Under the pieces are notes generated by a model that was not told where the DNA came from, ran no database searches, and saw only the letters and a program-made list of their open reading frames with translations. The position numbers were made by a program, and so were the translations under genes. DNA of 64,000 nucleotides, taken from contig CAYGGC010000001.1 in NCBI GenBank assembly GCA_964349465.1, positions 124,375 to 188,374 on the forward strand, in the 5' to 3' direction. This DNA is from an uncultured Gammaproteobacteria bacterium. GTDB taxonomy: Bacteria > Patescibacteriota > Patescibacteriia > SBBC01 > CAIJZX01. Each line of letters starts with the position of its first letter. Position 1 is the first letter of the stretch. Below are positions 3,446-53,423 of the stretch, piece after piece.

Positions 3446-5146
3446 ATGTCAAAAGCTTCAGCTGACATGGAAAAAATCGTCAACTTAGCGAAACGCCGCG
3501 GGTTTGTTTTTCCGTCCAGTGAGATATATGGAGGTTTAGCTGGTTTTTGGGATTGGGGACCGCTTGGTGTTCTTCTAAAAAACAATATAAAACGAGAATG
3601 GTGGCGGACTTTTGTCCAAAAAAGGAGCGATATGGTTGGTATTGATGGCACAATAATTTCCGCACCCAAGGTTTGGATGGCAAGCGGGCATGTTGATACC
3701 TTTGCTGATTTTTTAGTTGATTGCCAAAACTGTAAACACAGATTTCGTGGTGATCATTTGATTGAGCAATATACTGAGCAAAGCATTGTAGATTTTGCAA
3801 TTGCTTATCTTAGCGATTGGATTGAGTCAATTAGCGAAAGATATGGTAATGCAATAGTTAAAAAAAAGATTTCTCTTGAAGACTTAAACATTAGGGTTGC
3901 TGAGTCAAGAAAAAATCTTCTCGAATCAGGTATTGATCCTGACGAGGTATTAGAGGAATCAAAAAAGAAAAAGAAATTGATAATAAAAAGTGCCTCTGAT
4001 CGTCAAGAAGACCTTTCTCTTGATGCGGAATTTGAAGCTTGGAAAAGGGTAAAATCAAACATAGGAGAATTTATTAATCATTACATATATTACTCCCAAA
4101 TTCCCTGTCCTTCATGCAAAAAAACTGGTGAGTTTACAAAAGCGAGAAAATTTAATTTAATGTTAAAAACCAATATTGGTCCCGTTGAAGACTCTAGTAG
4201 CACCGGGTATTTGCGTCCTGAAACCGCGCAAAGCATTTTCATTAACTTTGAAAATGTCCGTGAATCAACGAGGAAAAAGCTGCCATTTGGTATCGCCCAG
4301 ATCGGCAAAGCCTTCCGGAATGAAATCACGCCTGGAAATTTTGTGTTCCGCCAACGGGAATTCGAACAAATGGAAATCGAATATTTCGTACGGCCGGGCG
4401 ATGACGACGCGCATTTTTCCACCTGGGTTGAAATGTGTTATCAATGGTTCCTCTCTTTAGGACTGAAAGCCGAGCATCTGCGCAAGTTTGAACAGCCGGC
4501 CAGCGAGTTGGCGCATTACTCGAAAGCCACAACAGATATTGAATTCACCTTTCCAATTGAAAAGGGTTGGGGCGAATTAATGGGGATCGCGAATCGGACT
4601 GATTACGATTTGAAACAGCACGGGCAGCACGCGAAGGGGAGTCCCGAAGCTTTTGCGACGCCGATTGACGACGAAGGGAAAGAGAAAAAAGTCCCGTTTG
4701 TGATTGAGCCGTCGATGGGCGTTGATCGCGCGGCGCTGGCCTTTCTGCTCGATGCGTATACCATCATCGATGGTGGTCGGTCCACGACGACCGAAAGTAT
4801 TAAAGACGAAGAAGTGGTGCTCAAGTTGCACCCGCGTTTAGCGCCATACACCGTGGCGATTTTACCACTCTCAAAAAAGCCGGAGCTAACCGCGATCGCG
4901 GAACCGTTGCTGGCTGAGCTGCGAAAAACGTGGATGGTTGATTATGATCAAACTGGTTCGATTGGGAAGCGCTACCGACGTCAGGACGAAATTGGTACCC
5001 CGCTGTGCGTGACCGTTGATTTCGATACGATCGAAGGTGTGAAGCGCCCAAAGGGAACCGTCACCGTCCGTGATCGCGATACCATGGAACAACATAACGT
5101 CGCTATTGATGAACTTCCGGCCTACGTGGCGGAGCGTCTCCGCTAG
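3446..5146 (+). CDS. glyQS: Glycine--tRNA ligase, dimeric glyQS type.
   Basis: N-terminal MEKIVNLAKRRGFVFPSSEIYGG...WDWGPLG signature, class II motifs, paired CxxC knuckles, C-terminal anticodon-binding domain. The first ~800 bp are markedly AT-rich. Confidence 0.9.
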   Translation: MSKASADMEKIVNLAKRRGFVFPSSEIYGGLAGFWDWGPLGVLLKNNIKREWWRTFVQKRSDMVGIDGTIISAPKVWMASGHVDTFADFLVDCQNCKHRFRGDHLIEQYTEQSIVDFAIAYLSDWIESISERYGNAIVKKKISLEDLNIRVAESRKNLLESGIDPDEVLEESKKKKKLIIKSASDRQEDLSLDAEFEAWKRVKSNIGEFINHYIYYSQIPCPSCKKTGEFTKARKFNLMLKTNIGPVEDSSSTGYLRPETAQSIFINFENVRESTRKKLPFGIAQIGKAFRNEITPGNFVFRQREFEQMEIEYFVRPGDDDAHFSTWVEMCYQWFLSLGLKAEHLRKFEQPASELAHYSKATTDIEFTFPIEKGWGELMGIANRTDYDLKQHGQHAKGSPEAFATPIDDEGKEKKVPFVIEPSMGVDRAALAFLLDAYTIIDGGRSTTTESIKDEEVVLKLHPRLAPYTVAILPLSKKPELTAIAEPLLAELRKTWMVDYDQTGSIGKRYRRQDEIGTPLCVTVDFDTIEGVKRPKGTVTVRDRDTMEQHNVAIDELPAYVAERLR

Positions 5147-6824
5147 CTTTCTCTTGGCCGTAGGGTTGGCACTGCCGGCCCAGGCTCAAGGCTCGAATTG
5201 GACGATGTCGTTTTTTCGATCCGACATTTCTGTCCATGACGATGCAAGTATTACTGTCACCGAAACTATTCAGGCCGATTTTTCCGTCGCGAAACACGGT
5301 ATCTTCCGCAACATTCCCTGGCGATACACAACTGACGATGGGGGGACGATGCAGGTCCCGGTTCAGGTTACGCGAGTGGCTAGAAACGGGGAGTCTGAAC
5401 CGTACACAACCTCATACAGTGGTGACAATCTGGAAATAAAAATTGGTGACGCGGACACAACGATCACTGGTGAACAAACCTATACAATTGAGTATTCCGC
5501 CCAAGCGGCGGTGAACTTTTTTTCTGATCACGACGAGTTGTATTGGAACGCGACCGGACATGACTGGGAAGTGCCGCTCGGGGCGGTTGAGGTCTCCGTT
5601 CGACTTGATACGCTCGTTGCGAAAGATCAGCTTCAGGTTCGATGTTTGACTGGAGTCGTCGGCTCAACCGCATCGGACTGCGTGGCTACGACGGATGATT
5701 CCGCTGTTAGTGCAACAACCGTCGGACAACCGTTAACGGTGGTATTCGGTTGGCCGCCTGGCTTCGTGACGAAGCCGGAGAACTACGATCAGATCCGATC
5801 GACGGCCGGGACGACGTTAATTGAACGGATTTTCAAAACCCCAATTGTTTTTTGGGGCCTGAACGGAGCGTTCCCGTTGTTGGCGCTGATGGGGATGATG
5901 TGGCACTGGCGTCAACGCGGTCGCGATGTACCGGGCAAAGGGACCGTTATCGCGCAGTATGAGCCACCGTCGGGCCTGACGCCTGGGGAAATGGGTACCT
6001 TATACGACGAGCAGGCGAATCATCGCGACGTGATTGCGACGATGGTTGATCTCGCGGTCCGTGGTCACCTCACGATTACGCAGCTGACCACGAAGAAATT
6101 CCTTGGCACAAGCACTGACTACCAGCTCGACCAACTTCATCCGACGAAGACGACGCCTCTGAAGGATCATGAAAAGCAGATTTTGGAGGGACTGTTCAGT
6201 GGCGGAGAGCGTGTGACCTTATCAAAACTCAAAGGAACTTTTGCGGACGATGTAAAAAAAATACAGGGCTCGTTGTATGACCAGGTTCGTGATCAAGGAT
6301 ATTTTACGGCTAATCCAAATACGATCCGCACGCTCTATATTGTCGCCGGACTTATTGTGGCTGGGGCTGGTTTCTTCCTCGTACCCTTTTTGATCTTCGG
6401 GCCAATAGTGGTCGGCCTGGTAATTGCCGGAATAGGACCGTTCATGCCGAAGCGAACCGCCAAAGGGGCGGAAGCACTCTGGCACGCGAAAGGCTTTAAA
6501 TTGTTTCTCGAGAAGGCGGAAAAATATCGGATCAAGTGGCAAGAAAAAGAAAATATTTTTGAAACCTATTTGCCGTACGCGATGGCGTTCGGGGTGGCGG
6601 ATAAATGGACGAAAGCCTTCGAGGGTTTGCAAAGAGAATCGCCGGGCTGGTTTCATGGTAACGGGAACACGTTTAACACCATCATGTTTTGGTCCGCCTT
6701 GAATAGCTTTAGTACGGCCAGCGCGAAAAGCTTTGCCCCACCGGCGGCGAGTGGTGGGTCAGGCCTAGGCGGGGGCGGTTTTTCTGGCGGTGGCTTTGGC
6801 GGCGGCGGAGGCGGGTCATGGTAG
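5109..6824 (+). CDS. DUF2207-like membrane protein: signal peptide, extracellular domain, two TM helices and a Gly-rich C-terminal tail.
   Basis: Signal-peptide-like MNFRPTWRSVSASFLLAVGLALPAQA from the internal ATG at 5109 (ORF-track start 5070 overlaps glyS). C-terminal GGSGLGGGGFSGGGFGGGGGGSW is typical of DUF2207. Confidence 0.6.
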   Translation: MNFRPTWRSVSASFLLAVGLALPAQAQGSNWTMSFFRSDISVHDDASITVTETIQADFSVAKHGIFRNIPWRYTTDDGGTMQVPVQVTRVARNGESEPYTTSYSGDNLEIKIGDADTTITGEQTYTIEYSAQAAVNFFSDHDELYWNATGHDWEVPLGAVEVSVRLDTLVAKDQLQVRCLTGVVGSTASDCVATTDDSAVSATTVGQPLTVVFGWPPGFVTKPENYDQIRSTAGTTLIERIFKTPIVFWGLNGAFPLLALMGMMWHWRQRGRDVPGKGTVIAQYEPPSGLTPGEMGTLYDEQANHRDVIATMVDLAVRGHLTITQLTTKKFLGTSTDYQLDQLHPTKTTPLKDHEKQILEGLFSGGERVTLSKLKGTFADDVKKIQGSLYDQVRDQGYFTANPNTIRTLYIVAGLIVAGAGFFLVPFLIFGPIVVGLVIAGIGPFMPKRTAKGAEALWHAKGFKLFLEKAEKYRIKWQEKENIFETYLPYAMAFGVADKWTKAFEGLQRESPGWFHGNGNTFNTIMFWSALNSFSTASAKSFAPPAASGGSGLGGGGFSGGGFGGGGGGSW

Positions 6825-20253: not shown

Positions 20254-20419
20254 GAAAAACGAGAGCCATGAAGAGGAGTTATTAACTGGTATTTCGTCTG
20301 CAGAATTTGAGATACAAATTAAAAAACTTGGAGAAGAGGCAAAGAAGAACCCAATATTAAAATCGCTAGGTACGGCATCAACGGAAATTCTTGAAGAAGT
20401 CCGGGAAAAGGATGAGTAA
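20240..20419 (+). CDS. Small acidic protein of 59 aa (65 aa from the 20222 ATG). It overlaps the rmuC end and the PIN-gene start. Candidate antitoxin-like partner.
   Basis: An intact ORF in 36% GC DNA with a 29-nt overlap onto the downstream PIN gene. No recognisable DNA-binding motif. Confidence 0.3.
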   Translation: MSDPKKNESHEEELLTGISSAEFEIQIKKLGEEAKKNPILKSLGTASTEILEEVREKDE

Positions 20420-20972
20420 CCTGCCATCATTAATCCTTTTAGATACGATGGCTGCGGCAGGAATTTTTTCTGATAGGCAAGAAAAACAAAAAAAGTGGGT
20501 GTCTACCATTCTACATTTGATCGCTTTTCTACCAGAAGCAGACATTACCATCCCCACACCTGTTTTTTTGGAGTTAGCGCAGTGGCATGTCAACTGGTAC
20601 AAATACGTTCAGAATATCAACCAGCCGAGTATCTCTAGCAGTCCGTTACTTAAGTACGTAAGCTATAGTATTCCTAAAAAAGTATTTTATCCGGCTGCCG
20701 CCTATAAACTTTTTTGTTCAAATAAGCAAAATAAGCCAGATGAATTTCGTAAAGAAAAGAATAAGATATCATTTATTGATTCTCTTTTAGCTTCATATTG
20801 TCTAACGTATAATTACGCTCTAGTAACGGAGAATCATAATGATTTTCCGGACAAATATTTTAGTATCGTTAAAGTTGCGACCTCTCCTGAATCAACCGGC
20901 ACAGAAAGGCGTCTACTCTTTTTGTTAAAACCTAATACCGAGGCATGGAGAAACGATTTATCAAGGATATAA
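20391..20972 (+). CDS. PIN-domain protein (VapC-like) with a ~60-aa insertion, in an AT-rich island.
   Basis: LILLDTMAA (Asp1), VFLELAQ (Glu), IDSLLASYCL (Asp3) and LVTENHNDF (Asp4). About 36% GC versus ~55% in the flanks. Confidence 0.65.
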   Translation: MKKSGKRMSNLPSLILLDTMAAAGIFSDRQEKQKKWVSTILHLIAFLPEADITIPTPVFLELAQWHVNWYKYVQNINQPSISSSPLLKYVSYSIPKKVFYPAAAYKLFCSNKQNKPDEFRKEKNKISFIDSLLASYCLTYNYALVTENHNDFPDKYFSIVKVATSPESTGTERRLLFLLKPNTEAWRNDLSRI

Positions 20973-20983
20973 CTTCGGAAAAC

Positions 20984-21014
20984 AAAAGCCGGTGTTGCGC
21001 AACACCGGCTTTGT
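20984..21014 (+). terminator. Rho-independent terminator after the PIN gene.
   Basis: GCCGGTGTTGCGCAACACCGGC followed by TTTGTG. Confidence 0.6.
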
Positions 21015-21374
21015 GAGAGGGCGCTTCGTTTGCCCGACCCTTGGAGCGACTCAACCCTGATCTTCAACAGCTCTGTATTTACTCGTCGTTCCTCCGGCGC
21101 GTGTGACTAAAAGTCTTTTCTCGTTTCGGCCCATCGTTTCCCCATGTAGTCCTGACGGAGTTGAAGTTGGCTTTTTTGCCAGCTCTCTTCGTGGTTTGGC
21201 GCCAAACCGTTCTACTTCGGTACTGCGATTGGCGACAGTGTAGCATAGGGTTTTATTGTTGAATAGTTTACATAAGTGTCAGGTGGAAACTGGTCGCGCA
21301 TTCGCTAACCTTAGCCAAAAAGTTTTACAACCCTTGCGTAAGTCGCCGGAAAGTAGTAGACTCGTGGCGCCTTT

Positions 21375-21698
21375 TTGGCTATGACTAGCGAAAATCCATT
21401 ACAAAATAGCGGTGACGGTGGCCCTTCGGCAGGCTCAGGGCGCCCTCTGTGGACGGCCCTCAACCTTGCCTGGGAGCTCGGGTATACTATTGTTATCCCG
21501 TTAGTCCTCTTCGCCCTCGCAGGCCGGTTCGCCGATAAACAGTTCGGCACGTCGCCCTGGCTGCTCCTGGCTGGGATGGCCCTCGCGATTACGGTAACGA
21601 CGATTGCGCTGGTCCGTAAGTTCTCGAAATTGATTAACGATATGAATAAAGAGATTCCGGCTCAAGGCCGGAATGACAAGAACCCTGATGGCCGCTGA
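21375..21698 (+). CDS. atpZ: AtpZ/AtpI-like small membrane protein, first gene of the ATP synthase operon.
   Basis: Two TM helices with FADKQFGTSPWLLLAGMALAI matching the AtpZ (ATPase_gene1) consensus. Confidence 0.6.
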   Translation: MAMTSENPLQNSGDGGPSAGSGRPLWTALNLAWELGYTIVIPLVLFALAGRFADKQFGTSPWLLLAGMALAITVTTIALVRKFSKLINDMNKEIPAQGRNDKNPDGR

Positions 21699-21716
21699 TC
21701 CCGTTAGAGTTGACCC

Positions 21717-21977
21717 ATGTATTACGTCTACGTTCTACGAAGTATCAGCAGCGGTCGTCTCTACACAGGCTATACTGAAAATCTACGGAAACGCTTGAGT
21801 GAACATGTTGAAAAGAAATCTAAGTACACCAAACATCGAGGTCCATACGAACTTATTTATTACGAAGCGAGTAAACACCGATACGACGCAATGGCACGAG
21901 AGATTTATTTGAAAAGTGGAATGGGTAAACGATATCTTCGCAATCGAATGAAAAGGTTTTTCTCAAGCGTTTCCTAA
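21717..21977 (+). CDS. GIY-YIG nuclease superfamily protein (UPF0213/YhbQ-like) inserted between atpZ and atpB.
   Basis: YVYVLRSISSGRLYTGYTENLRKRLSEH, a GIY-YIG core. The gene is AT-rich relative to its surroundings. Confidence 0.8.
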   Translation: MYYVYVLRSISSGRLYTGYTENLRKRLSEHVEKKSKYTKHRGPYELIYYEASKHRYDAMAREIYLKSGMGKRYLRNRMKRFFSSVS

Positions 21978-21987
21978 CTCTAACGGG

Positions 21988-28228: not shown

Positions 28229-28229
<1 letters not shown>

Positions 28230-28681
28230 TGTCTCAGCTCAAACTCACCATTTCCACCCCGGAACGCAAAGTGCTTGAAGAAAGCATTGAGAGTATTTCT
28301 TTGCCAACGGTTGATGGTCAGATTACGATTCTGCCACACCATCTTGCGCTGACCACCGTTTTGAAAGCGGGGGAGTTGCTGGTTCGGATGAATGGCGAAG
28401 AAAAGCCGTTCGCGATTGGCGGAGGATTTGCGGAAATTCATGATGAGGGCGTGACGATTCTCGCCGATACCGCCGAAGGCGCGGCCGAAATCGACGAAGC
28501 GAAGGCTGAAGAAGCTCGCGCTCGGGCAAAAGAGCTGATGGAAGCGAAGCGTGATGACGCCGAGGAATATGCGTTCTTGGCTGCAAAACTTGAACGTGAT
28601 TTGACGCGCCTCCACGTTGTCCGAAAATACAAGCATCGCGGCCATCACGGGATTACCCAAGAACCCGTCTTCAAAGAATAG
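28229..28681 (+). CDS. atpC: F0F1 ATP synthase subunit epsilon with a C-terminal extension.
   Basis: N-terminal beta-sandwich (LTISTPERKVLEESIESISLPTVDGQITILPHH). 150 aa. Confidence 0.8.
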
Positions 28682-28685
28682 GTCA

Positions 28686-28768
28686 ACCCTCACACCAAAC
28701 AACGGGGTTGCTTGGTGTGAGGGTCAAGGGTCAGCAAAAAGAGCCGGTCTTGACGAATCCGGCTTTTT
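28686..28768 (+). terminator. Tandem hairpin terminators after the atp operon. The second hairpin contains the -35 of the next promoter.
   Basis: CCCTCACACCAA...TTGGTGTGAGGG (12-bp stem), then AAAAAGAGCCGG...CCGGCTTTTT. Confidence 0.6.
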
Positions 28769-28834
28769 GGGCTAGGGTCAAATTTCAGTTAGCTGCACTT
28801 TCTCATGATCGAAAACCCCCAATGACTGGAGGTC

Positions 28835-29434
28835 GTGATGATTCACGGAGTCACTGAAACTGACTATCAGCGGGTCATGGAGCTGCGGAACGCGCCGCCG
28901 AACAGTGACGGACGTCGTCCGCTTGATGAGCTGAAACCGGCTGGTTTCAATGAAGATGGCATGATCATTACCGTCAGCTGTGGTGACGGCGATCGGATCG
29001 AGGACATCCTCGGTCACAAGCGCGTCACGCACTGCTGCAAGGTCCACGCCATCTGCCAGAACGGCGGCGCTATGCTGATGTCGGAGGCGTGCCCGGCAAA
29101 CTCGGAAGAGTGGCCGTGGGGTCGTTTGCTTCGTCGCTCGGTGCTCGACGCCTGTGAACTCAAGGGGACGAACCTCGTCGCGCTCGGGTCACACTACCCG
29201 TGCGGTCTGGCGAAGAAGCTCGGCATCTCGCTCGACGATGTCATTCGCCTCACGGTTGACGCCAAGCGGACGCTCAAGGCGATGCAGCCGAGCTTGGAAG
29301 TCTACTGCTTCTTCCACGTCGCGTACTACGACGGTCGGGCCCGGACCTATACCATCGATCACAAGTACACTCCCTTCTCAGAGGGAGGAATCCTTCCGCC
29401 CGCACGCGTTGCAGGAACTGGAGGAGGCTGGTAG
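28835..29434 (+). CDS. Hypothetical Cys/His-rich protein, paralog of the next gene. Possible beta-carbonic-anhydrase-like zinc fold.
   Basis: Own promoter TTGACG-17-TAGGGT and a GGAGG RBS. SCGDGDR...GSHYPCG has the same Cys...HxxCG spacing as the next gene. Confidence 0.35.
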   Translation: MMIHGVTETDYQRVMELRNAPPNSDGRRPLDELKPAGFNEDGMIITVSCGDGDRIEDILGHKRVTHCCKVHAICQNGGAMLMSEACPANSEEWPWGRLLRRSVLDACELKGTNLVALGSHYPCGLAKKLGISLDDVIRLTVDAKRTLKAMQPSLEVYCFFHVAYYDGRARTYTIDHKYTPFSEGGILPPARVAGTGGGW

Positions 29435-29467
29435 AATCACACCAGCCTTTTTTCTTATTCTCGATTC

Positions 29468-29888
29468 TATGTCCCACACCGCCAAAGCCCTCCTCCTGCA
29501 TTGCATTGATTATCGCTTCGTTCACGAAACGGTTCACTTTATGAAGTCGCAGGGTTTGATTGACCAATACGATGATGTTGGCGCGGCCGGAGCGGCGAAA
29601 AATCTGGTTGATCCGTATGACGCGAGTGACGTGGAATTCATTTTCCGACAAATTGAAATCGCGAAAAAACTCCATGATATTCAGGAAGTGGTGATTGTGA
29701 ACCACCGCGATTGTGGCGCCTACGGAAAAGGGGTTTTCGCTACTGAAGCTGAGGAGACCGAGCGCCATACCCACGACTTGGCCAAAGCAAAAATGATGAT
29801 TGAGCATCGGGTTGACGGTGTAAAGGTTCGAACCTATTTGGCGTGGTTACAAGAACCGCACGGCGTCGACTTCGATCCGATTGGGTAA
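29468..29888 (+). CDS. Beta-class carbonic-anhydrase-like protein of 140 aa. The ORF-track 5' extension from 29154 is judged spurious.
   Basis: HCIDYRF (CxDxR) and VVIVNHRDCGAYG (HxxCG) motifs. The upstream 105 codons are Arg/Ser-rich alternate-frame junk overlapping the previous gene. Confidence 0.4.
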
Positions 29889-29899
29889 TCAAAAAAACC

Positions 29900-29928
29900 T
29901 TGACACTACCCTCGGAACAGGGTAGGAC
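29900..29928 (+). promoter_or_regulatory. Promoter TTGACA-17-TAGGAC with an upstream A-tract, for the FabH-like gene.
   Basis: AAAAAAACCTTGACA...TAGGAC, with a GGAGGTG RBS 5 nt before the ATG at 29983. Confidence 0.45.
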
Positions 29929-29982
29929 TTGGGGTAGAGAAATTACCGTTCCTTCCAACCCATACAACTCTGGAGGTGGCCT

Positions 29983-31056
29983 ATGTTGACTGACGTGCGT
30001 TCGCTGACCGACGGTCAGCCCGGCGCCATTCTCGGCGTTGGACATACGGAGCTAGGCGAGCAGTATCGTTTCGACAACCGACGCTTCATTCTGAATCCTG
30101 AGAAGGTTCCGGGGGCGCTGTCACCGCTTGGTCGCAGACAACTTTTCATCGACCTGTCACTTGGTGCAACGCAATCCGAAGAGGAGCTCGTTGCTCTGGC
30201 TGATCAGAAGTTTATCGCGACGACGGGTATTCGGTCGCGGTATATTTTTGACGGCCCGGTGGCCGAGCTCGCGGCTATGGCTGGTCGCCAGGCGCTACGC
30301 GCTGCGCAGGTTGAAGCGTCCGAGATTGACGCGGTCATCGTCGGATCAAATACAGGTTCGGGCTATCCAAGCACAGCCGATCGAGTCAAAGTCGCGCTCG
30401 GGATTCCGTCGACGGCGCTGAGCTTCGATGTTCAGGAGGCCTGCCCGGTTGGCGCGATCGCGGTCGAGCTAGCCTGGAAACTGATTCGTGGACGTTTCCA
30501 TCGACGCGTGCTCGTCATCGGCGCGGAGAAGGCCACGACCTTGGCTTCGCCGGACGATTACAAGGGCGCTAATCTCTTCGGGGATGCGGCCTTCGCCTTT
30601 GTCCTCGGCGCGAGTACGGCGGACGACTTCATCTTCTTCGAATCGGGTTCAGATCCGTACGACGACAAGGCGGAGTACATTACCCGAACGAAGGATGGTT
30701 TTTCTCAGAACGGTCGGGCGGTGCACAAGTATGTCGGAACCGTCATCCCTGACTTGCTCGGACGAACCTTCGAACGGTTACGGCTTGACCCGGCGACGGT
30801 TCATCACTTCTTCCCGCATCAGCCGTCGGCCAAGACCCTCGACTTCCTTGTCGACAACCTCAAAGGGCGCTGGCCGACCTTTAACCCGGTGATCCACCGG
30901 AACGTCGAAGAGATGGGCAACACTTCTGGGGCCTGCACCGGCTGGATGATCTCACGGGCCAAGGCGCAGGGGCAGCTCAAGCCGGGCGAGTTCTGCCTCG
31001 TTGCGACCTTCGGGTCGGGGATGAGTTGGGGCCTGTATGGGTTCATTGTTCGGTAA
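29983..31056 (+). CDS. 3-oxoacyl-ACP synthase III (FabH)-like / KAS III family condensing enzyme.
   Basis: Cys-His-Asn triad contexts: VQEACPVGA, HHFFPHQPSAKTL and NVEEMGNTSGA. Atypical N-terminal insertion. Confidence 0.75.
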   Translation: MLTDVRSLTDGQPGAILGVGHTELGEQYRFDNRRFILNPEKVPGALSPLGRRQLFIDLSLGATQSEEELVALADQKFIATTGIRSRYIFDGPVAELAAMAGRQALRAAQVEASEIDAVIVGSNTGSGYPSTADRVKVALGIPSTALSFDVQEACPVGAIAVELAWKLIRGRFHRRVLVIGAEKATTLASPDDYKGANLFGDAAFAFVLGASTADDFIFFESGSDPYDDKAEYITRTKDGFSQNGRAVHKYVGTVIPDLLGRTFERLRLDPATVHHFFPHQPSAKTLDFLVDNLKGRWPTFNPVIHRNVEEMGNTSGACTGWMISRAKAQGQLKPGEFCLVATFGSGMSWGLYGFIVR

Positions 31057-31127: not shown

Positions 31128-34100
31128 ATGGTAAAATCTCTGCCTATGCCCGGCGAAATTCCATCCCAGGTCAACCCCGAACAGCAAGCTGCTATTCACC
31201 ATGGCCAAGGCCCATTGTTAATTGTGGCGGGAGCAGGGACCGGAAAAACGACCGTCGTGACCGAGCGGATTGCCCATCTGATCATGGACCAGCAGGTCCC
31301 GTCGGATAATATCCTCGCCCTGACGTTTACCGACAAGGCCGCTGGAGAAATGCAGGATCGGGTTGAACGGATTTTACCGTTCGGGTATGTCGATTTATGG
31401 GTGATGACGTTCCATGGATTTGCCCAGCGACTTCTCAAAGATCACGCGCTCGACATCGGCCTGTCGAATGATTTTAAGCTTTTATCACAAACAGATCAGT
31501 GGCTACTCATTCGCGAACACCTCGATGAGTTCGACCTCGACCACTATCGGCCGCTCGGCAATCCGACCAAGTTTATTACGGCCCTGGTCAAGCATTTCTC
31601 TCGTCTGAAGGACGAAGATATTACGCCGGAGGAATACGTGAAATATGCAAAAGGGTTGGCGAAGGGCAAGGCCAAGAAATCCGATGAAGAGAAAGCCGAA
31701 GCTGAACGGACGATGGAACTTGCGAAGGCGTATTCGACGTATAACCAACTTTTACTCGACACCAATGCGCTTGATTTCGGTGATCTCATTGTCTATACCC
31801 TCCGCCTGCTTCGCGAACGCCCGGCGATTCTCAAGCACTACCAAAAACAATTTCAATATGTCCTCGTTGACGAATTCCAAGACACGAACTGGGCGCAATT
31901 TGAATTGATTAAGCGCTTGTCGGCGCCACGGAATAATTTGACCGTCGTCGGCGACGATGACCAGTCGATCTATAAATTCCGCGGCGCCTCGGTTTCGAAT
32001 ATTCTCGAATTCAAAAAAGATTTTCCTGACGCGGACGTCATTGTGCTAACGAAGAACTATCGAACCCGCCAATCCATTCTTGATCTTTCTTATGATTTTA
32101 TCCAGCACAATAATCCGGACCGTCTCGAAGCAAAAAAGGAAGCACTGGGTGGATTGCAGATTGTGAAGAAGCTTATGTCCCAGCGCGAGGGGAAAGGTGA
32201 GATCGGCTTAATCCACGTTGAGACGCAAGAGTCGGAAGCGCGAAGCGTTGCTGAAAAAATTGATGAGCTGAAAAAATCTAATCCGGAGTTGTCCTGGGAC
32301 GCGTTCTGCGTCCTCGTTCGGGCAAACGACCATGCCGAAATTTTCATTAACGAGTTTGAGCGGCGTGGTTGGCCGTATGTTTTTTTAGCCGCGCGCGGAT
32401 TATTCACCAAGCCGCTAGTGATTGATCTCCTGGCCTATTTGCGTTTGCTGGATAATTATCACGAAAGCGCCGCGCTCTATCGTGTTCTCGCGATGCCGAT
32501 CTGGGACATTGATCATGCGGATATTGTTGAAATCGCGTATCAGGCGAAGAAAAAAACCCAGTCGCTCTACGAAGCGATCAACGACGCTCCAGCCGGAATT
32601 TCTGAAGCGAGTCGGAAAGGGATTACCAAACTCCTGGGCCACATCGCGGCTCACTCACAATTGGCACTGGCCCAGCCGGTCGGCGAGGTGCTCTTACACT
32701 TTCTCAATGATTCTGGGTATTTGCAAGACATGACCCGGGAAGAAACCCTCCAGTCACAACAGCAATCAGCCATTCTCCGCCAACTGTTTAAGGTGATTGA
32801 AGCCTTCCAGCACGGGAATCCCGCGGTTGGTTCGAGTCACGCGACGGTAAAAAGTTTTTTGAAATATATTGAACATGTCACGGAGTCCGGTGATGCCGGA
32901 GCGCTTGAGCGAGATATGGAAGCTGGACCGGAGACGATGAAGATCATGACGGTCCACGCCGCCAAGGGCTTGGAGTTTCCGTACGTCTTTATAGGTAACG
33001 TCGTGGAACAGCGTTTTCCAGGCCAAGACCGCAAGGATCCGATTCCGGTCCCAGACGCCCTCATTCGAGAAATTTTGCCGCAAGGCGACGCCCATCTGCA
33101 GGAAGAGCGGCGACTGATGTATGTCGCGATTACTCGCGCCCGCGACGGTGTATTCTTTACCTTAGCCGAAGATTACGGCGGGACGCGGCGCAAGAAGCCC
33201 TCACCGTTTATCTATGAACTGCAACTGCTCGCGCCGCCGGTCAAAGCTGAAAAGAAACCGCCCCTGCCAGAGCGTTTGTTTACTCCCACGCCGACGCAGG
33301 TGAAGGAGTCGGCCGCCTATCAGCTCCGTGAAAAACACTATAGTTTCACGAAACTGTCGACCTATAATGATTGCCCGTGGAAATACCGCTATGCCTTCGT
33401 CCTGCAAGTACCGAAGCGGGGAAGTCATGTCCTCTCCTATGGCTCATCCATCCATAAAACGTTACAAAACTTTTTTTCACTCTGGAAACAGCGCCAGCAT
33501 GATGGTATGACCGAAAAAAATCCAGTCAATCTCGAAGAACTACTGACGATGTACCGCCAATCCTTCATCGAAGAATGGTACCAATCAAAAAAAATCCGGA
33601 ATGAGTATTACGCGAAAGGGGAGGCGGCGTTGAAAACATGGTATACGAAAACAGTTCAGGCTCCGCCCGACGTCCTGCGGCTTGAACAAGTCTTTAATTT
33701 GAAAGTCGACGAGTTTGTCGTGAATGGCGCGATCGATCGCATTGATCAAATTGGCGTTGATGAAAAAACGAAAAAACCACAAGTGAAAATTGTCGATTAC
33801 AAAACCGGGAAGGTCAAAGAGAAATTTGAAAAGGATGATAAATATCAGCTTTTGATTTATACATTAGCAGTGAAGGATCCAAATATTCTTGACGGCGAAG
33901 TCACGGAGTTGGAATATTATTTCGTCGATGAAAATGCATCGCGGACAATGGTGCCAACCGAAAAAGACGCGACTGCGGCGCTTGATTGGGTCCGGGCCAC
34001 GGTGAAAGGGATTCAATCCGGTGATTTCCGGGCGACGCCGAACGAGATGATTTGCAAATTCTGCGACTATAAGGAAATTTGCGAGTTTCGAGCAATATAA
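31128..34100 (+). CDS. UvrD/PcrA-family superfamily-1 helicase fused to a C-terminal Cas4/AddB-like PD-(D/E)xK nuclease with a Cys cluster.
   Basis: AGAGTGKTT Walker A and UvrD motifs. C-terminal VDYKTGK, QLLIYTL and CKFCDYKEIC, plus an upstream CPW Cys (4Cys Fe-S nuclease pattern). Confidence 0.85.
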   Translation: MVKSLPMPGEIPSQVNPEQQAAIHHGQGPLLIVAGAGTGKTTVVTERIAHLIMDQQVPSDNILALTFTDKAAGEMQDRVERILPFGYVDLWVMTFHGFAQRLLKDHALDIGLSNDFKLLSQTDQWLLIREHLDEFDLDHYRPLGNPTKFITALVKHFSRLKDEDITPEEYVKYAKGLAKGKAKKSDEEKAEAERTMELAKAYSTYNQLLLDTNALDFGDLIVYTLRLLRERPAILKHYQKQFQYVLVDEFQDTNWAQFELIKRLSAPRNNLTVVGDDDQSIYKFRGASVSNILEFKKDFPDADVIVLTKNYRTRQSILDLSYDFIQHNNPDRLEAKKEALGGLQIVKKLMSQREGKGEIGLIHVETQESEARSVAEKIDELKKSNPELSWDAFCVLVRANDHAEIFINEFERRGWPYVFLAARGLFTKPLVIDLLAYLRLLDNYHESAALYRVLAMPIWDIDHADIVEIAYQAKKKTQSLYEAINDAPAGISEASRKGITKLLGHIAAHSQLALAQPVGEVLLHFLNDSGYLQDMTREETLQSQQQSAILRQLFKVIEAFQHGNPAVGSSHATVKSFLKYIEHVTESGDAGALERDMEAGPETMKIMTVHAAKGLEFPYVFIGNVVEQRFPGQDRKDPIPVPDALIREILPQGDAHLQEERRLMYVAITRARDGVFFTLAEDYGGTRRKKPSPFIYELQLLAPPVKAEKKPPLPERLFTPTPTQVKESAAYQLREKHYSFTKLSTYNDCPWKYRYAFVLQVPKRGSHVLSYGSSIHKTLQNFFSLWKQRQHDGMTEKNPVNLEELLTMYRQSFIEEWYQSKKIRNEYYAKGEAALKTWYTKTVQAPPDVLRLEQVFNLKVDEFVVNGAIDRIDQIGVDEKTKKPQVKIVDYKTGKVKEKFEKDDKYQLLIYTLAVKDPNILDGEVTELEYYFVDENASRTMVPTEKDATAALDWVRATVKGIQSGDFRATPNEMICKFCDYKEICEFRAI

Positions 34101-34316: not shown

Positions 34317-34390
34317 AGTTGGCGGCAGGATGTGAACCTACGACCAGAAGATTTCAAGTCTTGTGCTCTACCGGGTTGAGCTACGCCAGC
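34317..34390 (-). tRNA. tRNA-like gene of 74 nt, cloverleaf, anticodon loop CUUGAAA (anticodon UGA by position) with a short variable arm. Atypical. Identity uncertain.
   Basis: Acceptor GCUGGCG/CGCCAAC (one C·A mismatch), D-arm GCUC-AACCCGGUA-GAGC, T-arm GUAGG-UUCACAU-CCUGC. It begins 16 nt after a TTGACA-16-TAGAGT promoter. Confidence 0.45.
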
Positions 34391-34662: not shown

Positions 34663-35211
34663 TTACTCGGCGGGAGCGTGTTTGAGGTCGAAGCCCAGCG
34701 TGACCTCTTTCGCGTAGCCCGGTAGGTCCTCGAGGACCATGACGTCGGCCTGTGACTTCATGATCGGCAAGCCGCGGCCGCGGAGCTTATGAACGTCCTG
34801 CTGGTCTGGACGAGGGATCTTCCGGCTGGCCGGGAAGAGCGGCGTGCCGACTTCAACAACGTTGAAGACCCTGATCGTGCATCGTCGGTTGGAACCGATC
34901 CCAACCACGATGCAGCTCACTTGCACGTCCGATCCCGGTCGACAGTGTTGACCGGCATTGGTCAACGCTTCGCACGCGCAGTCGCTGACCCAGTGGACGA
35001 AGTTCCACGGCAGACGGTTGACGTCGAGCAGGTAGGCCTCGAGCAAGGGCATGATCAGCCCGGGAGTCGCTGCAGAACCGGCACAGCGCCAAGCTTCGCC
35101 GCTACTTTCGACCGTTCCACCAGACGCGATCGGCCACCGGGTGACCTGGCCTTTGATGATACGCTGCAGTACTGGGGTTCCATCAGGAATGTGCACGTGG
35201 GGCGTCGCCAT
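34663..35211 (-). CDS. RsbW/SpoIIAB-like GHKL ATPase (anti-sigma-factor-type serine kinase).
   Basis: VSDCACEALTNAGQHC (N-box-like) and GRGLPIMKSQADVMVL (G-box-like). ATG at 35211 with an AAAGGAGG RBS 8 nt upstream; the track's GTG at 35220 is too close to that RBS. Confidence 0.5.
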   Translation of the reverse strand: MATPHVHIPDGTPVLQRIIKGQVTRWPIASGGTVESSGEAWRCAGSAATPGLIMPLLEAYLLDVNRLPWNFVHWVSDCACEALTNAGQHCRPGSDVQVSCIVVGIGSNRRCTIRVFNVVEVGTPLFPASRKIPRPDQQDVHKLRGRGLPIMKSQADVMVLEDLPGYAKEVTLGFDLKHAPAE

Positions 35212-35322
35212 GAGATCCACCTCCTTTGGGCGATTGGGAAAGGACTGCTTCCTCTTCCTCTGGTCTACTCCCGCCCTCGACGGTTGTCAAGCGGATAAAA
35301 AATCAGTATAATCTCGAAGCCT

Positions 35323-46821: not shown

Positions 46822-46890
46822 AGTGTTGACGAACTAGGATTGAAAGCGTAAGATCAGCCCGATTTGCCCTTTCCTAAAGGAGGTACCCAG

Positions 46891-47574
46891 GTGCAGAACC
46901 ACCATCGTCGACGCGGTAAGATCCGCGGTTTTGCCGGCAATATGGGCTCTGGCAAGACCAGCCGGTTGATCGGCGTGGCCTACGAGCCGAGCAAGCAGGC
47001 GAGCGGAGTCATCTTTCTTCAGCCGCCCGAAGCGAATCGAGCGGACACCAAGACCCGAGTCGAGTCACGCATCCACGCCCGGTACGAAGGAGCGATTCCG
47101 GTCACGACGCCGGCCGACATTGCTCGGGAAGTGCGGGCCACGCGGGCGCGCAACATCTTCCTCGAAGAGATTCAGTTCTTCGGGAAGGATGAAGCGATGA
47201 TCAACGAGTTTCAGAAGCTGATGCTCGAGTTGCGTGACGAGGGCTACAACATCTACTGGTCGGGTTTGCCGCTCGATTTCCGCGGCGACCCGTTCGAGGT
47301 GGTCGCCTTCATGATGGCCTTGTCGGGGGTCCTCGAGATGCTCCAGGTCGAGTGCGCGCATTGCCAAGCGGTACCGGCGCCCTTGCCCCAGCGGCTCGAG
47401 TTCAACCAGCCGGTGCCGCACGGTCACCCGCGGTTTCTGGCTGACACCTCTGAACACAACAACGCCGGGATCACCTACGAACCGCGCTGCGAAGGCTGCC
47501 ACATCGTTCTCGATGACTGGAACACTCATTCACGAGCGATTCACGACGCCCTCCAGGCGCAGAAGCCGGCCTAA
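46891..47574 (+). CDS. tdk: Thymidine kinase.
   Basis: GNMGSGKTS P-loop and C-terminal Zn ribbon CAHC...CEGC. GTG start with AAAGGAGG 7 nt upstream (the track's TTG at 46864 is unlikely). Promoter TTGACG-17-TAAGAT. Confidence 0.8.
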   Translation: MQNHHRRRGKIRGFAGNMGSGKTSRLIGVAYEPSKQASGVIFLQPPEANRADTKTRVESRIHARYEGAIPVTTPADIAREVRATRARNIFLEEIQFFGKDEAMINEFQKLMLELRDEGYNIYWSGLPLDFRGDPFEVVAFMMALSGVLEMLQVECAHCQAVPAPLPQRLEFNQPVPHGHPRFLADTSEHNNAGITYEPRCEGCHIVLDDWNTHSRAIHDALQAQKPA

Positions 47575-47610
47575 CAACTCTCATAGCAATGGGAGTTTTT
47601 TCTTGCCTTG

Positions 47611-47651
47611 CCCAGCCCCACTTTTTTGTTAAGGAAAAAAGTGGGGCTGGG
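47611..47651. terminator. 17-bp perfect hairpin with an A/T loop (bidirectional terminator or attenuator) between tdk and tmk.
   Basis: CCCAGCCCCACTTTTTTgttaaggAAAAAAGTGGGGCTGGG. Confidence 0.5.
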
Positions 47652-47751
47652 CTTGCCGATGGTTTTGGGGTGTGATAGAGTCATCCGGCCAAGAAACTGG
47701 AGGGCTTGGTGACAAGCCCTTTGACAATCACGTCAAACCCACGGAGGAACT

Positions 47752-48378
47752 ATGCCCGAAGGGAATTTCATCGTCTTTTCCGGCGGCGAGGGGAGCGGAA
47801 AAACAACCGCGCTCGATCGACTGAAGGAAGAGTATCCACATCTCATTACGACTCGCGAACCTGGAGGGACAGAGTTCGGGCAGCGCCTGCGCCACATGCT
47901 CGTCAATGAGCCGGAGCGCGATGCGGCCACTGAGCTACTTCTCTTCTTCACCGATCGGGCTCATCACGTCCAGACGGTCATCCGACCGGCGCTGGCGGCT
48001 CATGAGACGATCATCTCCGACCGCTACTGGATGGACTCGTTTGCCTACCAGTGGTGGGGGCGGATGGGTATTCGCGACCAGAATACCTACCCGAATTTCG
48101 GCAACCTGTTCTGGCCGTTCCATTTCCCGACGCCACGGGCCTGGCTCTGGTTCGATGTCCAGCCGGAAATCGGGCTGGCGCGGAAGGCGGTGGCCACGGA
48201 TCGTAATCGCCTTGATGATTTGCCGGTGGATTTTCACCAGCAGGTCAGGGCGGGATTCGAGTATCTGTTCGAACACTGTCTGAATGAAGAAACCAGTCAC
48301 CGGATCGACGCCAACCAGTCTCCGGATAACGTCTACGCGAGCGTCAAAGCGGCGCTCAAACCGTACCTGCGTGCCTAG
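47752..48378 (+). CDS. tmk: Thymidylate (dTMP) kinase.
   Basis: FSGGEGSGKTT P-loop and REPGGT. Own promoter TTGCCG-17-TAGAGT. The 5'-UTR carries TTTGACaatcacGTCAAA. Confidence 0.85.
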   Translation: MPEGNFIVFSGGEGSGKTTALDRLKEEYPHLITTREPGGTEFGQRLRHMLVNEPERDAATELLLFFTDRAHHVQTVIRPALAAHETIISDRYWMDSFAYQWWGRMGIRDQNTYPNFGNLFWPFHFPTPRAWLWFDVQPEIGLARKAVATDRNRLDDLPVDFHQQVRAGFEYLFEHCLNEETSHRIDANQSPDNVYASVKAALKPYLRA

Positions 48379-48386
48379 GAGGGAAG

Positions 48387-49298
48387 ATGATCACGACGAA
48401 GGGGACGGAACTCCCGATCCTGGATCTGGATGGTTTTCCGGCCATTCACGTCCCGGTCCTTCAGACTGCGGCTGGAACGCCGTATCTGCGCGAACCGGGC
48501 GTGGCTTTGCTCGCCAAGCCGGATGTCAGCCTGGCTGGGATGCAGGGTTTCCTCGAGGGCTACGATCCGAACTTCAAGTTCGAGGAGTATCTCAACGATC
48601 CTGACATCTTGCCCCCCGCGGAGACGCTGCTCAAGGCGGCTGGCCAGACCTGCTACGCGAGCTGGGGTCCGGGACGTTCCTGGAACAAGGATGCGGCCAA
48701 GTATCTCGATCACATCAAGTCGTCGGGACACGGCTCGGTTCTCGAGCACGCCAACTTCTCGTTCCTGCTCTACGGCATTTCCCGCAGCAATTCCCACGAA
48801 GGGGTTCGCCATCGGGCCGGCACGGCCTTCTCGCAGCTGAGCCAGCGCTACGTCTCGGGCCGGGTTCTGCGGTTCGTCGAGCGGCCGTCTTACGTCGCGA
48901 GCGAGAAGCTCCACGCGCGCTTCGAGCGCCGGATCGACTTCCTGGCCAAGGAGTACGCGGAGATCAGTGAAGAGCTCTACGCCATGCAGGCGGCGGGTGA
49001 GAATGCGATCCTGTCGGCCGATCAGAAGACCGATCTGCGCAAGAAGGTCCAGCAGGAAGCGCGTTCGGTTCTCCCGAACGAGACGGAGACCGTCATGGTC
49101 CTGACCGGCAACGTGCGGTCGTGGCGACACATGATCGAGATGCGCGCCAACGGGGGCGCTGAAGTGGAGATTCGGGGCACCTTCTACCGGCTCTTCCACT
49201 GCCTGAAGCTGGTCGCGCCGTTGCTCTTCAACGACTACGAGATCGTCCAGCAGCCGGACGGCACCTGCGTCGTGGCGACGCCGTATCGCAAGGTGTAG
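48387..49298 (+). CDS. thyX: FAD-dependent thymidylate synthase ThyX.
   Basis: ThyX motif EGVRHRAGTAFSQLSQRY (RHRxxxxxS). Confidence 0.85.
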   Translation: MITTKGTELPILDLDGFPAIHVPVLQTAAGTPYLREPGVALLAKPDVSLAGMQGFLEGYDPNFKFEEYLNDPDILPPAETLLKAAGQTCYASWGPGRSWNKDAAKYLDHIKSSGHGSVLEHANFSFLLYGISRSNSHEGVRHRAGTAFSQLSQRYVSGRVLRFVERPSYVASEKLHARFERRIDFLAKEYAEISEELYAMQAAGENAILSADQKTDLRKKVQQEARSVLPNETETVMVLTGNVRSWRHMIEMRANGGAEVEIRGTFYRLFHCLKLVAPLLFNDYEIVQQPDGTCVVATPYRKV

Positions 49299-49300
49299 CC

Positions 49301-49528
49301 ATGTTCCTGACCTGCAAGGAAGCTCGCCGGATCGTCCGACGGTTTCGCAAGGGCGATCGTCCACGTCCCGTAGTGCACCTCATTTTCCGGGCCTCGGCTC
49401 ATGTCGATAACTGTGGGTGTGAATTCTGCTCGGCCGTTGTGGTCGAGATGGAGCGTGCACCCCAGCCGACGCCCGACGTTCTGTCCTTTCCGGCGCACCG
49501 CGCACCAACCGTTTCCACGGCCCGTTGA
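49301..49528 (+). CDS. Small Cys/His-containing hypothetical protein of 75 aa.
   Basis: HVDNCGCEFC cluster. Same high-GC composition as the island. Followed by a terminator. Confidence 0.3.
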   Translation: MFLTCKEARRIVRRFRKGDRPRPVVHLIFRASAHVDNCGCEFCSAVVVEMERAPQPTPDVLSFPAHRAPTVSTAR

Positions 49529-51975: not shown

Positions 51976-52803
51976 TTATTGTAAGTAGTTCAGCAGTTCA
52001 GTGAGCTTGTTGATGCGTCGGACTGATCGAGGTAATCGTTGCGGGGCCCAGCCTTGACCGCCAATCACGAGCAGTGTCTTAGTTGGGCAGGCGGCGATAA
52101 ATTTTTGTAGATAGTCGCGGTTCACTCGTTGCGCATAGGTGTTCGTGATGCTCACCATAGCCGGTTGCAGGTCCTTTGTCGCTCGAAGGAGCTCCTCGAC
52201 TGGGGTATTTGCGCCGAGGATTTCTCGCTGGTACCCGCATTGCTTAAAGATCAACGCAGCCATTTGTAGCGGGAGTTCATGGAAGTCGCCGCGGACGCAG
52301 GCCATGATGACTTTCGGTGGACGCGACTGGTTTGGTTCGGGGATGAGATTTTCAAGCCGAAGCAGGTCTTGGCGGATGCGAAAACTCATGCGGTGCTCTT
52401 CAACAATTGTCAGACTTCCTTGGGACCAGAGGTCGCCAATCATCCGTAAGGTTGGAGCGATAATATCCTCCAGAATCGTAACCAAAGGAGTTCCGGTTAC
52501 GTACTTATGTTCAATCAAATCTGTCGCTTCGATATCACGATGATCCCGAAGGAGCAGAAAATATGAACCCGGACCTTCAATCGGGACTACTTCGCGTTTC
52601 AATCGCTTCAGGACATAGGACCGAGGAGCGAGATGCGGAAACCGTTGTATAAATACATCAAGCTGTTTTCGGCTCGTCCGACGATGCCCCCCAGGCGTGA
52701 CCGATGAGGGGATAATACTTTTATCAATCCAACGCTTGATGGTCGAGACATTAACGTCAAAAAGGCGGGCTAGTTGGGGCGGACTAAAATGCACGTTTTG
52801 CAT
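51976..52803 (-). CDS. MerR-family HTH regulator with a C-terminal cobalamin-binding domain (CarH/LitR-like).
   Basis: N-terminal HTH (PPQLARLFDVNVSTIKRWI). C-terminal Rossmann-like B12 domain (VIMACVRGDFHEL...VSITN...VIGGQG). The DxHxxG motif is degenerate (the G is a P). Confidence 0.55.
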   Translation of the reverse strand: MQNVHFSPPQLARLFDVNVSTIKRWIDKSIIPSSVTPGGHRRTSRKQLDVFIQRFPHLAPRSYVLKRLKREVVPIEGPGSYFLLLRDHRDIEATDLIEHKYVTGTPLVTILEDIIAPTLRMIGDLWSQGSLTIVEEHRMSFRIRQDLLRLENLIPEPNQSRPPKVIMACVRGDFHELPLQMAALIFKQCGYQREILGANTPVEELLRATKDLQPAMVSITNTYAQRVNRDYLQKFIAACPTKTLLVIGGQGWAPQRLPRSVRRINKLTELLNYLQ

Positions 52804-52868: not shown

Positions 52869-53423
52869 ATGAAAAGTTCTGCATGGGTGGTCATCATCGT
52901 TATCCTCGCGGCGGGAATTGGAGCTTGGGCTCTTGTTTCATCCGGGTCGAACAAGGAGACGAAAGAAATTGAAACCACAAAAACATCTTCAGAAACAACT
53001 AACCCAACTACTCCTATGGAAAAAAATATTGTTGAAACCGCGATTGCGGCTGGTTCCTTCAAAACACTTGTGACCGCCGTCCAGGCCGCCGGACTCGTTG
53101 AAACCTTAAGTGGTCCAGGACCCTTTACGGTCTTTGCCCCAACCGATGAAGCGTTCGCAAAGCTCCCAGCCGGGACGCTCGAAGCCTTGCTCGCTGACAA
53201 AGCCAAGCTCGCCTCGATTCTGACCTATCACGTCGTGTCTGGAAAAGTGATGGCCGCCGATGTGGTTAAACTGACCTCAGCCAAAACAGTTCAAGGTCAA
53301 TCGGTCACGATTAGCACGACGGATGGTGTGACGGTTGATAACGCGAACGTTATTCAAACGGACATCGAAACCTCGAACGGCGTGATCCACGTGATCGACG
53401 CGGTCATCTTACCAAAGGAATAA
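52869..53423 (+). CDS. Fasciclin (FAS1) domain protein, secreted or membrane-anchored.
   Basis: N-terminal TM/signal segment. FAS1 motifs [10 protein letters not shown] and [13 protein letters not shown]. Confidence 0.8.

Follow-up and report, generated by a model that had tools for sequence, protein, structure and literature searches.

Beta-class carbonic anhydrases are obligate dimers whose active sites lie at the subunit interface, and dissimilar units of the beta-carbonic-anhydrase fold are known to work as pairs: CsoSCA joins a catalytic to a degenerate domain, LCIB and LCIC form a complex and the Porphyridium carbonic anhydrase (1ddz) is a tandem protein. The small Cab-type members of the class include Cab of M. 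thermoautotrophicum (1g5c), the fungal CafC and CafD (6jqc and 6lac) and Rv1284 of M. tuberculosis (1ylk). Here we describe a stretch of 64,000 nucleotides of the contig CAYGGC010000001.1 (referred to below as the window), in which three genes on the plus strand, g1, g2 and g3, lie within positions 28750-31056, between atpC and the gene of a UvrD/AddB-type helicase. The first two encode small proteins resembling beta-class carbonic anhydrases, and the third encodes a condensing enzyme of the beta-ketoacyl-acyl carrier protein synthase III (KAS III, FabH) type. The organism names borne by homologues assign the window to Candidatus Kerfeldbacteria, small symbiotic bacteria within the Patescibacteria or Candidate Phyla Radiation (CPR). 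Our analysis suggests that this block is probably two independent things that adjoin by chance, a g1-g2 cassette and a separately transcribed g3.

Results

The family of g2, which is defined by the Pfam domain Pro_CA_2 (PF20393), was scanned in one genome per species of the Genome Taxonomy Database (GTDB). This gave 80 loci, of which 69, 72 or 73 were evaluable depending on the test, and their six-frame open reading frames (ORFs) were searched with hidden Markov models of the g1, g2 and g3 families and of the proteins that flank them in the window. Nearly all of the 80 loci come from Patescibacteria (Kerfeld-, Uhr-, Magasanik-, Lipton-, Jackson- and Buchananbacteria, Paceibacter and others). 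The Pro_CA_2 gene lies at most 3 kb downstream of atpD/atpC and on the same strand at 42 of 69 evaluable loci, and directly 3' of atpC in 14 (with a gap of 9-163 nucleotides, narrowing to 9-36 in several lineages), while a helicase gene follows it on the same strand at 34 of 73. At about 40 of the 72 loci tested, the upstream ORF is a second beta-carbonic-anhydrase-fold gene on the same strand. It is a g1-family gene immediately upstream of Pro_CA_2 at 24 loci under a strict threshold and about 30 under a relaxed one, and a second Pro_CA_2-like paralogue in the same place at about 10 further loci. The conserved unit is made of the atp genes, an optional second beta-carbonic-anhydrase-fold gene, Pro_CA_2 and the helicase; it is not the g1-g2-g3 trio. 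At one locus (L094, positions 5001-6747, on a metagenome contig of 988 kb), the gene downstream of a g1-family gene encodes a 348-residue protein that weakly matches CsoSCA_cat (carboxysome carbonic anhydrase, catalytic domain), and the helicase comes next; this makes a different pairing of beta-carbonic-anhydrase-fold genes at the same position.

The FabH-like gene behaves differently. It stands between Pro_CA_2 and the helicase in the window and at loci L001-L005, L012, L019, L022 and L097, the L097 protein being 43% identical to g3. It is found 5 kb from Pro_CA_2 in L015 and alone among unrelated genes in L006, L008, L096, L098 and L099, and on contig JACPSJ010000001.1 some 420 kb separate it from Pro_CA_2. 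Other lineages have, in the slot ahead of the helicase, ORFs that differ greatly in length and are not matched by the FabH-like profile. Thus g3 is in a variable slot and is a neighbour of Pro_CA_2 in only part of the Kerfeldbacteria. The initial annotation of this DNA had singled out a FabH-like enzyme beside CO2/bicarbonate-type enzymes; with the adjacency restricted in this way, and with a promoter motif of its own ahead of g3 (see below), this arrangement does not stand as a meaningful unit.

Many GTDB records with the Patescibacteria-type atp/Pro_CA_2/helicase order (L019-L023, L036, L042, L045, L049, L055, other 'binchicken' records, L081 and L054) are titled 'uncultured Gammaproteobacteria' or 'Saccharibacteria', names that are probably placeholders or incorrect. 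Two relatives of Pro_CA_2 are on contigs titled Halobacteria archaeon (258 kb) and Desulfobulbaceae (3 kb), and others on Azospirillum chromids, where the homologues are about 31-39% identical over the aligned part and the genomic context is uninformative. None were found in phage records.

Each of the three genes is preceded by a promoter-like motif (P1, P2 and P3; Table 1). A consensus promoter scan called neither P1 nor P3, whose -10 hexamers match the consensus at just three of six positions. The motifs are conserved across diverged loci, and the spacers around them are otherwise unlike. In P1, the TTGAC and TA-G-T positions are invariant in the window, L001 and L004 and the remainder of the spacer differs; across diverged loci, the motif reads TTGAC(A/G), 17 nucleotides, then TAGGGT or TATGCT. 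In P3, TTGAC is invariant in five loci, four of which keep a -10 hexamer of TAGGAC or TATGAC. For P2, four of five diverged loci have TTGC, 19 nucleotides and then TAGAAT or TACACT, and L019 retains the -10 hexamer alone; the TAG of this hexamer is the g1 stop codon. The initial annotation had given each gene its own promoter and had located the pairs TTGACG-17-TAGGGT and TTGACA-17-TAGGAC. Both pairs are where it placed them, and motif conservation, including that of the third motif before g2, supports the general claim. The conserved motif ahead of g3 argues for its separate expression.

The three ORFs themselves are real, with some adjustment of their bounds. The g1 span of 28835-29434 that had been proposed has the right end; the start is more likely the ATG at 28838, because the database copy has 198 residues, the homologues align from that methionine and a GGAGG stands 6 nucleotides upstream, as it also does ahead of the g3 start codon. 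The start given for g2, at 29468, is one base out of frame and opens onto 12 stop codons; the correct start is at 29469. The g2 leader (29438-29468) has no recognisable Shine-Dalgarno sequence and carries a T-rich stretch, CCTTTTTTCTTATTCTCGATTCT, before the ATG; a T-rich leader is present in all five aligned loci. Three hairpins accompany these signals (Table 1). The terminator scan places the one just 3' of the atpC stop codon on the minus strand, and in L001 a stem of other sequence (CGGGG/CCCCG) surrounds the same TTGAC loop as in the hairpin that holds the P1 -35 hexamer.

The protein encoded by g2 scores 61.6 bits against PF20393 (gathering cut-off 30, E = 1.1e-16), and the domain is present in all 46 of the g2 homologues found. 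Its motifs are C12-I-D14-Y-R16 and H79-R-D-C82-G, with a Cys-to-His spacing of 67 residues; at the sequence level it has both the zinc-ligand pattern of beta-class carbonic anhydrases (Cys...His-x-x-Cys) and the CxDxR dyad. An alignment of 43 homologues shows no variation at D14, H79, D81 and C82 and hardly any at C12 and R16.

The g1 protein carries C49-G-D51-G-D53-R54 and H120-Y-P-C123-G, with 71 residues from Cys to His. It has the zinc-ligand pattern (C49, H120 and C123) without the CxDxR dyad: its Arg lies one residue after the canonical position and is not conserved in the family, whose consensus, CxDGDQ...HAPCGxA, has Asp at the place of the dyad Arg. Among 69 aligned family members, C49, D51, G77, H120, P122 and C123 are invariant and H71, K110, H161 and Y172 nearly invariant. 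An exhaustive HMMER search with g1 found 352 cluster representatives at E <= 1e-3, where a word-indexed search returned just three close relatives. No match to g1 was found in Pfam (PF00484 and PF20393 included), NCBIfam or the PDB sequences, nor did the profile of its family match the PDB, and the link to beta-class carbonic anhydrases is seen solely by profile-profile and structure comparison. The positional orthologues of g1 upstream of Pro_CA_2 in the sister Kerfeldbacteria L012, L014, L015, L017, L019 and L024 have the His ligand replaced by Asp (xDxxC, at His120), and in some of them the Asp after the first Cys is replaced by His (CGH, at Asp51), which suggests that their metal site is being remodelled or lost.

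A BLASTP comparison of g1 with g2 shows no similarity (E = 9.8), which rules out a recent duplication. Their family profiles align by hhalign with 94.9% probability (E = 4.7e-8, 128 columns), with both motifs in register, and the predicted monomer structures of both have the alpha/beta fold of beta-class carbonic anhydrases. For both models, the best structural matches include the carbonyl sulfide (COS) hydrolase 3vrk and the carbon disulfide (CS2) hydrolase 3ten; CsoSCA (8thm), LCIB (5k5w) and the tandem Porphyridium enzyme (1ddz) are also among the matches. By this evidence, g1 and g2 are anciently diverged, remotely related proteins of the beta-carbonic-anhydrase fold. The initial annotation had called them paralogous, carbonic-anhydrase-like proteins with shared motifs about 67 residues apart. 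The fold assignment was right, with the Pro_CA_2 match of g2 as further support, and the kinship holds as remote homology and not as close paralogy. The motifs are present in both proteins and are not there by chance, because their residues are invariant or nearly so in the family alignments; the spacing was right for g2 and too short for g1.

For g3, the Pfam models PF08545 (ACP_syn_III) and PF08541 (ACP_syn_III_C) score 51.6 and 51.9 bits, both above their cut-offs, in agreement with the KAS III/FabH-like call made earlier. The NCBIfam cut-offs for FabH itself are not reached (PRK09352, 156.9 against 249 bits; TIGR00747, 122.3 against 292.1 bits). The best PDB matches are genuine FabH enzymes, whether g3 is searched as a single sequence (S. 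aureus 1zow, E = 7e-27) or its clade as a profile (8vd9, 178 bits, far above PqsD, BioZ, CorB and OleA). This clade comprises about 45 proteins (41-100% identity, E <= 1e-54, most or all of the length aligned), and the three members that carry organism names are all Kerfeldbacteria. Below it there is a sharp break in score, down to ordinary FabH at about 30% identity and about 80% query coverage. C154, H279 and N313 align with the S. aureus FabH catalytic triad and do not vary among 45 clade members, which bears out the intact Cys-His-Asn contexts noted before; the atypical N-terminal insertion is likewise evident against FabH, as about 10 extra residues and a 35-45-residue insertion after the first strand. 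We considered hydroxymethylglutaryl-coenzyme A synthase and thiolase and rejected both, since their Pfam and NCBIfam matches are much weaker than those of FabH and the triad is Cys-His-Asn.

The earlier statement that the window holds no other fatty-acid-synthesis genes is correct for the 40 further ORFs scanned (the atp and neighbouring genes were identified separately). No acyl carrier protein (ACP), carboxylase or other gene of this pathway was found among the scanned ORFs of the window or at the local loci, a weak test since whole genomes could not be covered, and no AcpP-like ORF in the fragments searched, which were the window and about 1 Mb of related loci. CPR bacteria are reported to have no de novo fatty-acid synthesis, yet to contain fatty-acid-based lipids (PMC7906910). 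Our literature search found nothing relevant on FabH in Patescibacteria.

The block had also been described as one of higher GC content. Relative to 51 window genes, this is moderately so for g1 (GC 0.605, z = 1.75; GC at third codon positions, GC3, 0.735) and g3 (GC 0.597, z = 1.56; GC3 0.693) and not so for g2, which at 0.500 (z = -0.66) lies below the window mean. Three other genes of the window exceed g1, namely thyX (0.628), tdk (0.615) and the ORF at 34663-35220 (0.620), and tmk (0.590) is about level with g3. We thus rejected the whole block as a GC island, and the hint of horizontal transfer drawn from its composition is weak and does not apply to g2.

The rest of the window has a housekeeping content: a clpB-like gene, several transfer RNA (tRNA) synthetase genes, the whole atp cluster, gyrB, nusG and the genes of ribosomal proteins L11 and L1, together with tdk, tmk, thyX, gatB, miaA, dnaE and ftsW. 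The thymidylate genes tdk, tmk and thyX (46864-49298, plus strand) have the highest GC3 of the window (0.72-0.84), above that of the g1-g3 block, and a 329-residue antisense ORF that overlaps thyX (48375-49364) is probably a shadow ORF arising from this high GC3. A 193-residue ORF (20391-20972, plus strand) that lies after rmuC and ahead of the atp cluster has a very low GC content of 0.373 (z = -3.6), a GC3 of 0.366 and no Pfam match, and could be a foreign or fast-evolving insert; the following 1 kb or so (20973-21987) has no ORF of 120 residues or more. At 51976-52803 (minus strand), a MerR-type helix-turn-helix domain is fused to B12-binding domains in an architecture like that of the light-sensing CarH, which is unexpected in a reduced CPR genome; the gene of a fasciclin-domain protein (52869-53423) adjoins it. 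Downstream of the helicase come a tRNA gene (34317-34390, minus strand) and then a 185-residue ORF (34663-35220, minus strand; GC 0.620) with a weak HATPase_c_2 match, at the position of which L001 has a 182-residue protein that belongs to no family.

Table 1. Genes and putative signals from atpC to the helicase gene.
Feature	Positions	Strand	Remarks
atpC (F1 epsilon), final ATP synthase gene	28229..28681	+	ORF; PF02823 on syntenic homologues
Strong hairpin just 3' of atpC stop	28686..28724	+	Minimum free energy -27 kcal/mol, z = -4.35, 0/200 shuffles as good
Terminator-like hairpin and T-run after atp genes; loop holds P1 -35 hexamer	28738..28768	+	-13.8 kcal/mol, z = -2.4
P1, promoter-like motif before g1	28750..28778	+	TTGACG 28750-28755, 17 nucleotides, TAGGGT 28773-28778
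g1, 198-residue beta-carbonic-anhydrase-fold zinc-motif protein, unannotated family, CxDxD...HxPCG	28838..29434	+	Alternative GTG start 28835
P2, promoter-like motif before g2	29409..29437	+	TTGCAG 29409-29414, 17 nucleotides, TAGAAT 29432-29437
Terminator-like hairpin and T-run overlapping g1 stop and P2 -10 box	29420..29453	+	Terminator scan; -17.9 kcal/mol, z = -3.7
g2, 139-residue minimal beta-class carbonic-anhydrase-like protein (Pfam Pro_CA_2), CxDxR...HxDCG	29469..29888	+	
P3, promoter-like motif before g3	29900..29928	+	TTGACA 29900-29905, 17 nucleotides, TAGGAC 29923-29928
g3, 357-residue KAS III (FabH)-type thiolase-fold condensing enzyme	29983..31056	+	PF08545 and PF08541
UvrD/AddB-type helicase-nuclease, 990 residues, conserved downstream cassette boundary	31128..34100	+	Pfam domains on syntenic homologues

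Discussion

On balance, we favor the view that the three genes reflect a chance meeting of two independent things. One would be a cassette of g1 and g2, encoding two remotely related zinc proteins of the beta-carbonic-anhydrase fold, that is found at the 3' end of the F1Fo ATP synthase cluster and ahead of the helicase across Patescibacteria. The other would be g3, a separately transcribed FabH descendant that takes no part in a pathway with g1 and g2. The g2 product is most likely a minimal carbonic anhydrase, which would interconvert CO2 and bicarbonate through a zinc-bound hydroxide, because every core catalytic residue of the class is kept (the Cys, His and Cys ligands and the Asp-Arg dyad). 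For g1, a second ordinary carbonic anhydrase is the less likely reading, because Asp replaces the dyad Arg and metal ligands are swapped in the orthologues of sister lineages; it would rather be a fast-evolving partner of g2, accessory or hetero-oligomeric, or an enzyme whose metal site is altered. The best-supported reading of g3 is that of a divergent FabH descendant, a relic that persists as an orphan in organisms for which the CPR literature reports no fatty-acid synthesis. It retains the Cys-His-Asn machinery with which acyl thioesters would be loaded and condensed in a decarboxylative Claisen reaction.

Several points weigh against parts of this interpretation. With the classical Pro_CA model PF00484, the check that the initial annotation had proposed, g2 reaches 21.4 bits, below the gathering cut-off of 25.7, and passes the cut-off of PF20393 instead. 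Since g2 has neither the N-terminal arm nor the C-terminal part that solved beta-class carbonic anhydrases possess, its oligomer and the completion of its active site could differ, and our literature search found no characterised member of PF20393 and no paper mentioning the family. A complex of g1 with g2, which we infer from gene adjacency and from beta-class carbonic anhydrases being obligate dimers, has to be set against the roughly 35 loci that carry Pro_CA_2 without a detectable partner gene, which indicate that g1 is dispensable. In the window, atpC and g1 are separated by two hairpins and a promoter motif. The helicase, which is functionally unrelated, is equally conserved alongside the atp-Pro_CA_2 linkage, so this linkage should not be over-read; it could be an inherited gene order without functional meaning. 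As for g3, its description as an orphan draws on the window, the local loci and the literature.

The alternative that survives best, although we consider it unlikely, is that g1, g2 or both are not carbonic anhydrases, and act instead as COS or CS2 hydrolase-like enzymes or as non-catalytic zinc accessory or regulatory factors of the ATP synthase. This is suggested by the appearance of 3vrk and 3ten among the best structural matches of both models, by the missing dyad Arg of g1 and the changing metal ligands of its orthologues, and by the short distance between atpC and Pro_CA_2 in several lineages. The full carbonic anhydrase catalytic set of g2 argues the other way, but COS and CS2 hydrolases keep the same set, so sequence alone cannot separate these activities; we found no evidence of a physical link to the ATP synthase.

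Less probable still, in our estimate, is that Pro_CA_2 and its variable beta-carbonic-anhydrase-fold partner serve the F1Fo ATP synthase of Patescibacteria as a lineage-specific accessory, with Pro_CA_2 transcribed together with the atp genes, as the last of them, in many lineages. If this were true, the pair might provide local equilibration of CO2, bicarbonate and protons coupled to proton flow, in cells that mostly have no respiratory chain, and g1-type proteins would be partner subunits that evolve rapidly and whose metal site has been remodelled. We found no publication on a link between carbonic anhydrases and atp operons.

That the block is a horizontally acquired island is more doubtful again. 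The GC content of g1 and g3, about 1.6-1.8 standard deviations above the window mean, and the variable slot of g3 could be taken in its favor, but g2 lies below that mean, the housekeeping genes thyX and tdk exceed g1, tmk is about as high as g3, and all three families, with the same flanking synteny, are almost confined to Patescibacteria. Outside the clade, the closest FabH relatives share only about 30% identity with g3, so any transfer would be old and within the Patescibacteria radiation. Least probable of all is a single functional module of g1, g2 and g3 in which the carbonic-anhydrase-like proteins would handle bicarbonate or CO2 for KAS III condensation or for malonyl extender synthesis: the genes lie side by side on one strand, in the window as at several Kerfeldbacteria loci, including the diverged L097, and KAS III chemistry is established to release CO2, but all three genes have conserved promoter motifs of their own, most Pro_CA_2 loci are without the FabH-like gene, which elsewhere occurs alone or far away, the slot before the helicase is variable and the window has yielded no carboxylase, ACP or other fatty-acid-synthesis gene. 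A pathway from CO2 to FabH is not supported.

Taking the g1-g2 cassette and g3 as separate, we regard three things as moderately new: an unannotated beta-carbonic-anhydrase-fold family, a minimal beta-class carbonic-anhydrase-like gene whose place behind the atp cluster is conserved in CPR bacteria, and a clade of orphan FabH proteins. The g1 family, with about 350 representative clusters and no Pfam or NCBIfam model, widens the known diversity of this fold and displays ligand swapping among positional orthologues. The presence of a 139-residue beta-class carbonic-anhydrase-like gene as the last of the atp cluster in several Patescibacteria lineages, of which we found no prior report, is a hint on how these cells handle pH and inorganic carbon. 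A FabH descendant with an intact triad, in organisms reported to be without fatty-acid synthesis, is a candidate for the chemistry by which CPR bacteria might scavenge or remodel lipids. None of these findings overturns current knowledge.

In comparison with known systems, g3 resembles the FabH of S. aureus (1zow) and E. coli (1hn9) in its thiolase fold domains, its Cys-His-Asn residues set in xACxxG, HQ and GNTS contexts, and its GSG oxyanion loop. It departs from them in sharing only about 27-33% identity, in having HQPS for HQAN, in its insertion, in falling below the NCBIfam cut-offs and in having no partners of type II fatty-acid synthesis nearby. The CxDxR...HxxCG of g2 is the canonical pattern of beta-class carbonic anhydrases, and g2 is a clear member of PF20393, which Pfam describes as 'putative carbonic anhydrase', whereas g1 goes undetected by that model. 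Compared with the Cab-type enzymes, which have 164-172 residues, g2 is shorter at 139 and begins just 11 residues ahead of its first ligand, with no N-terminal arm; g1 has Asp for the dyad Arg and the extra near-invariant residues H71, K110, H161 and Y172; and the 67-71 residues between Cys and His in g2 and g1 are unlike the Cab-type spacing. The pair differs from CsoSCA, LCIB-LCIC and the tandem Porphyridium enzyme in that g1 and g2 are separate genes with separate promoter motifs and that both keep their zinc ligands in the window. It is like them in that two diverged units of the beta-carbonic-anhydrase fold are encoded side by side, one of them with a labile metal site.

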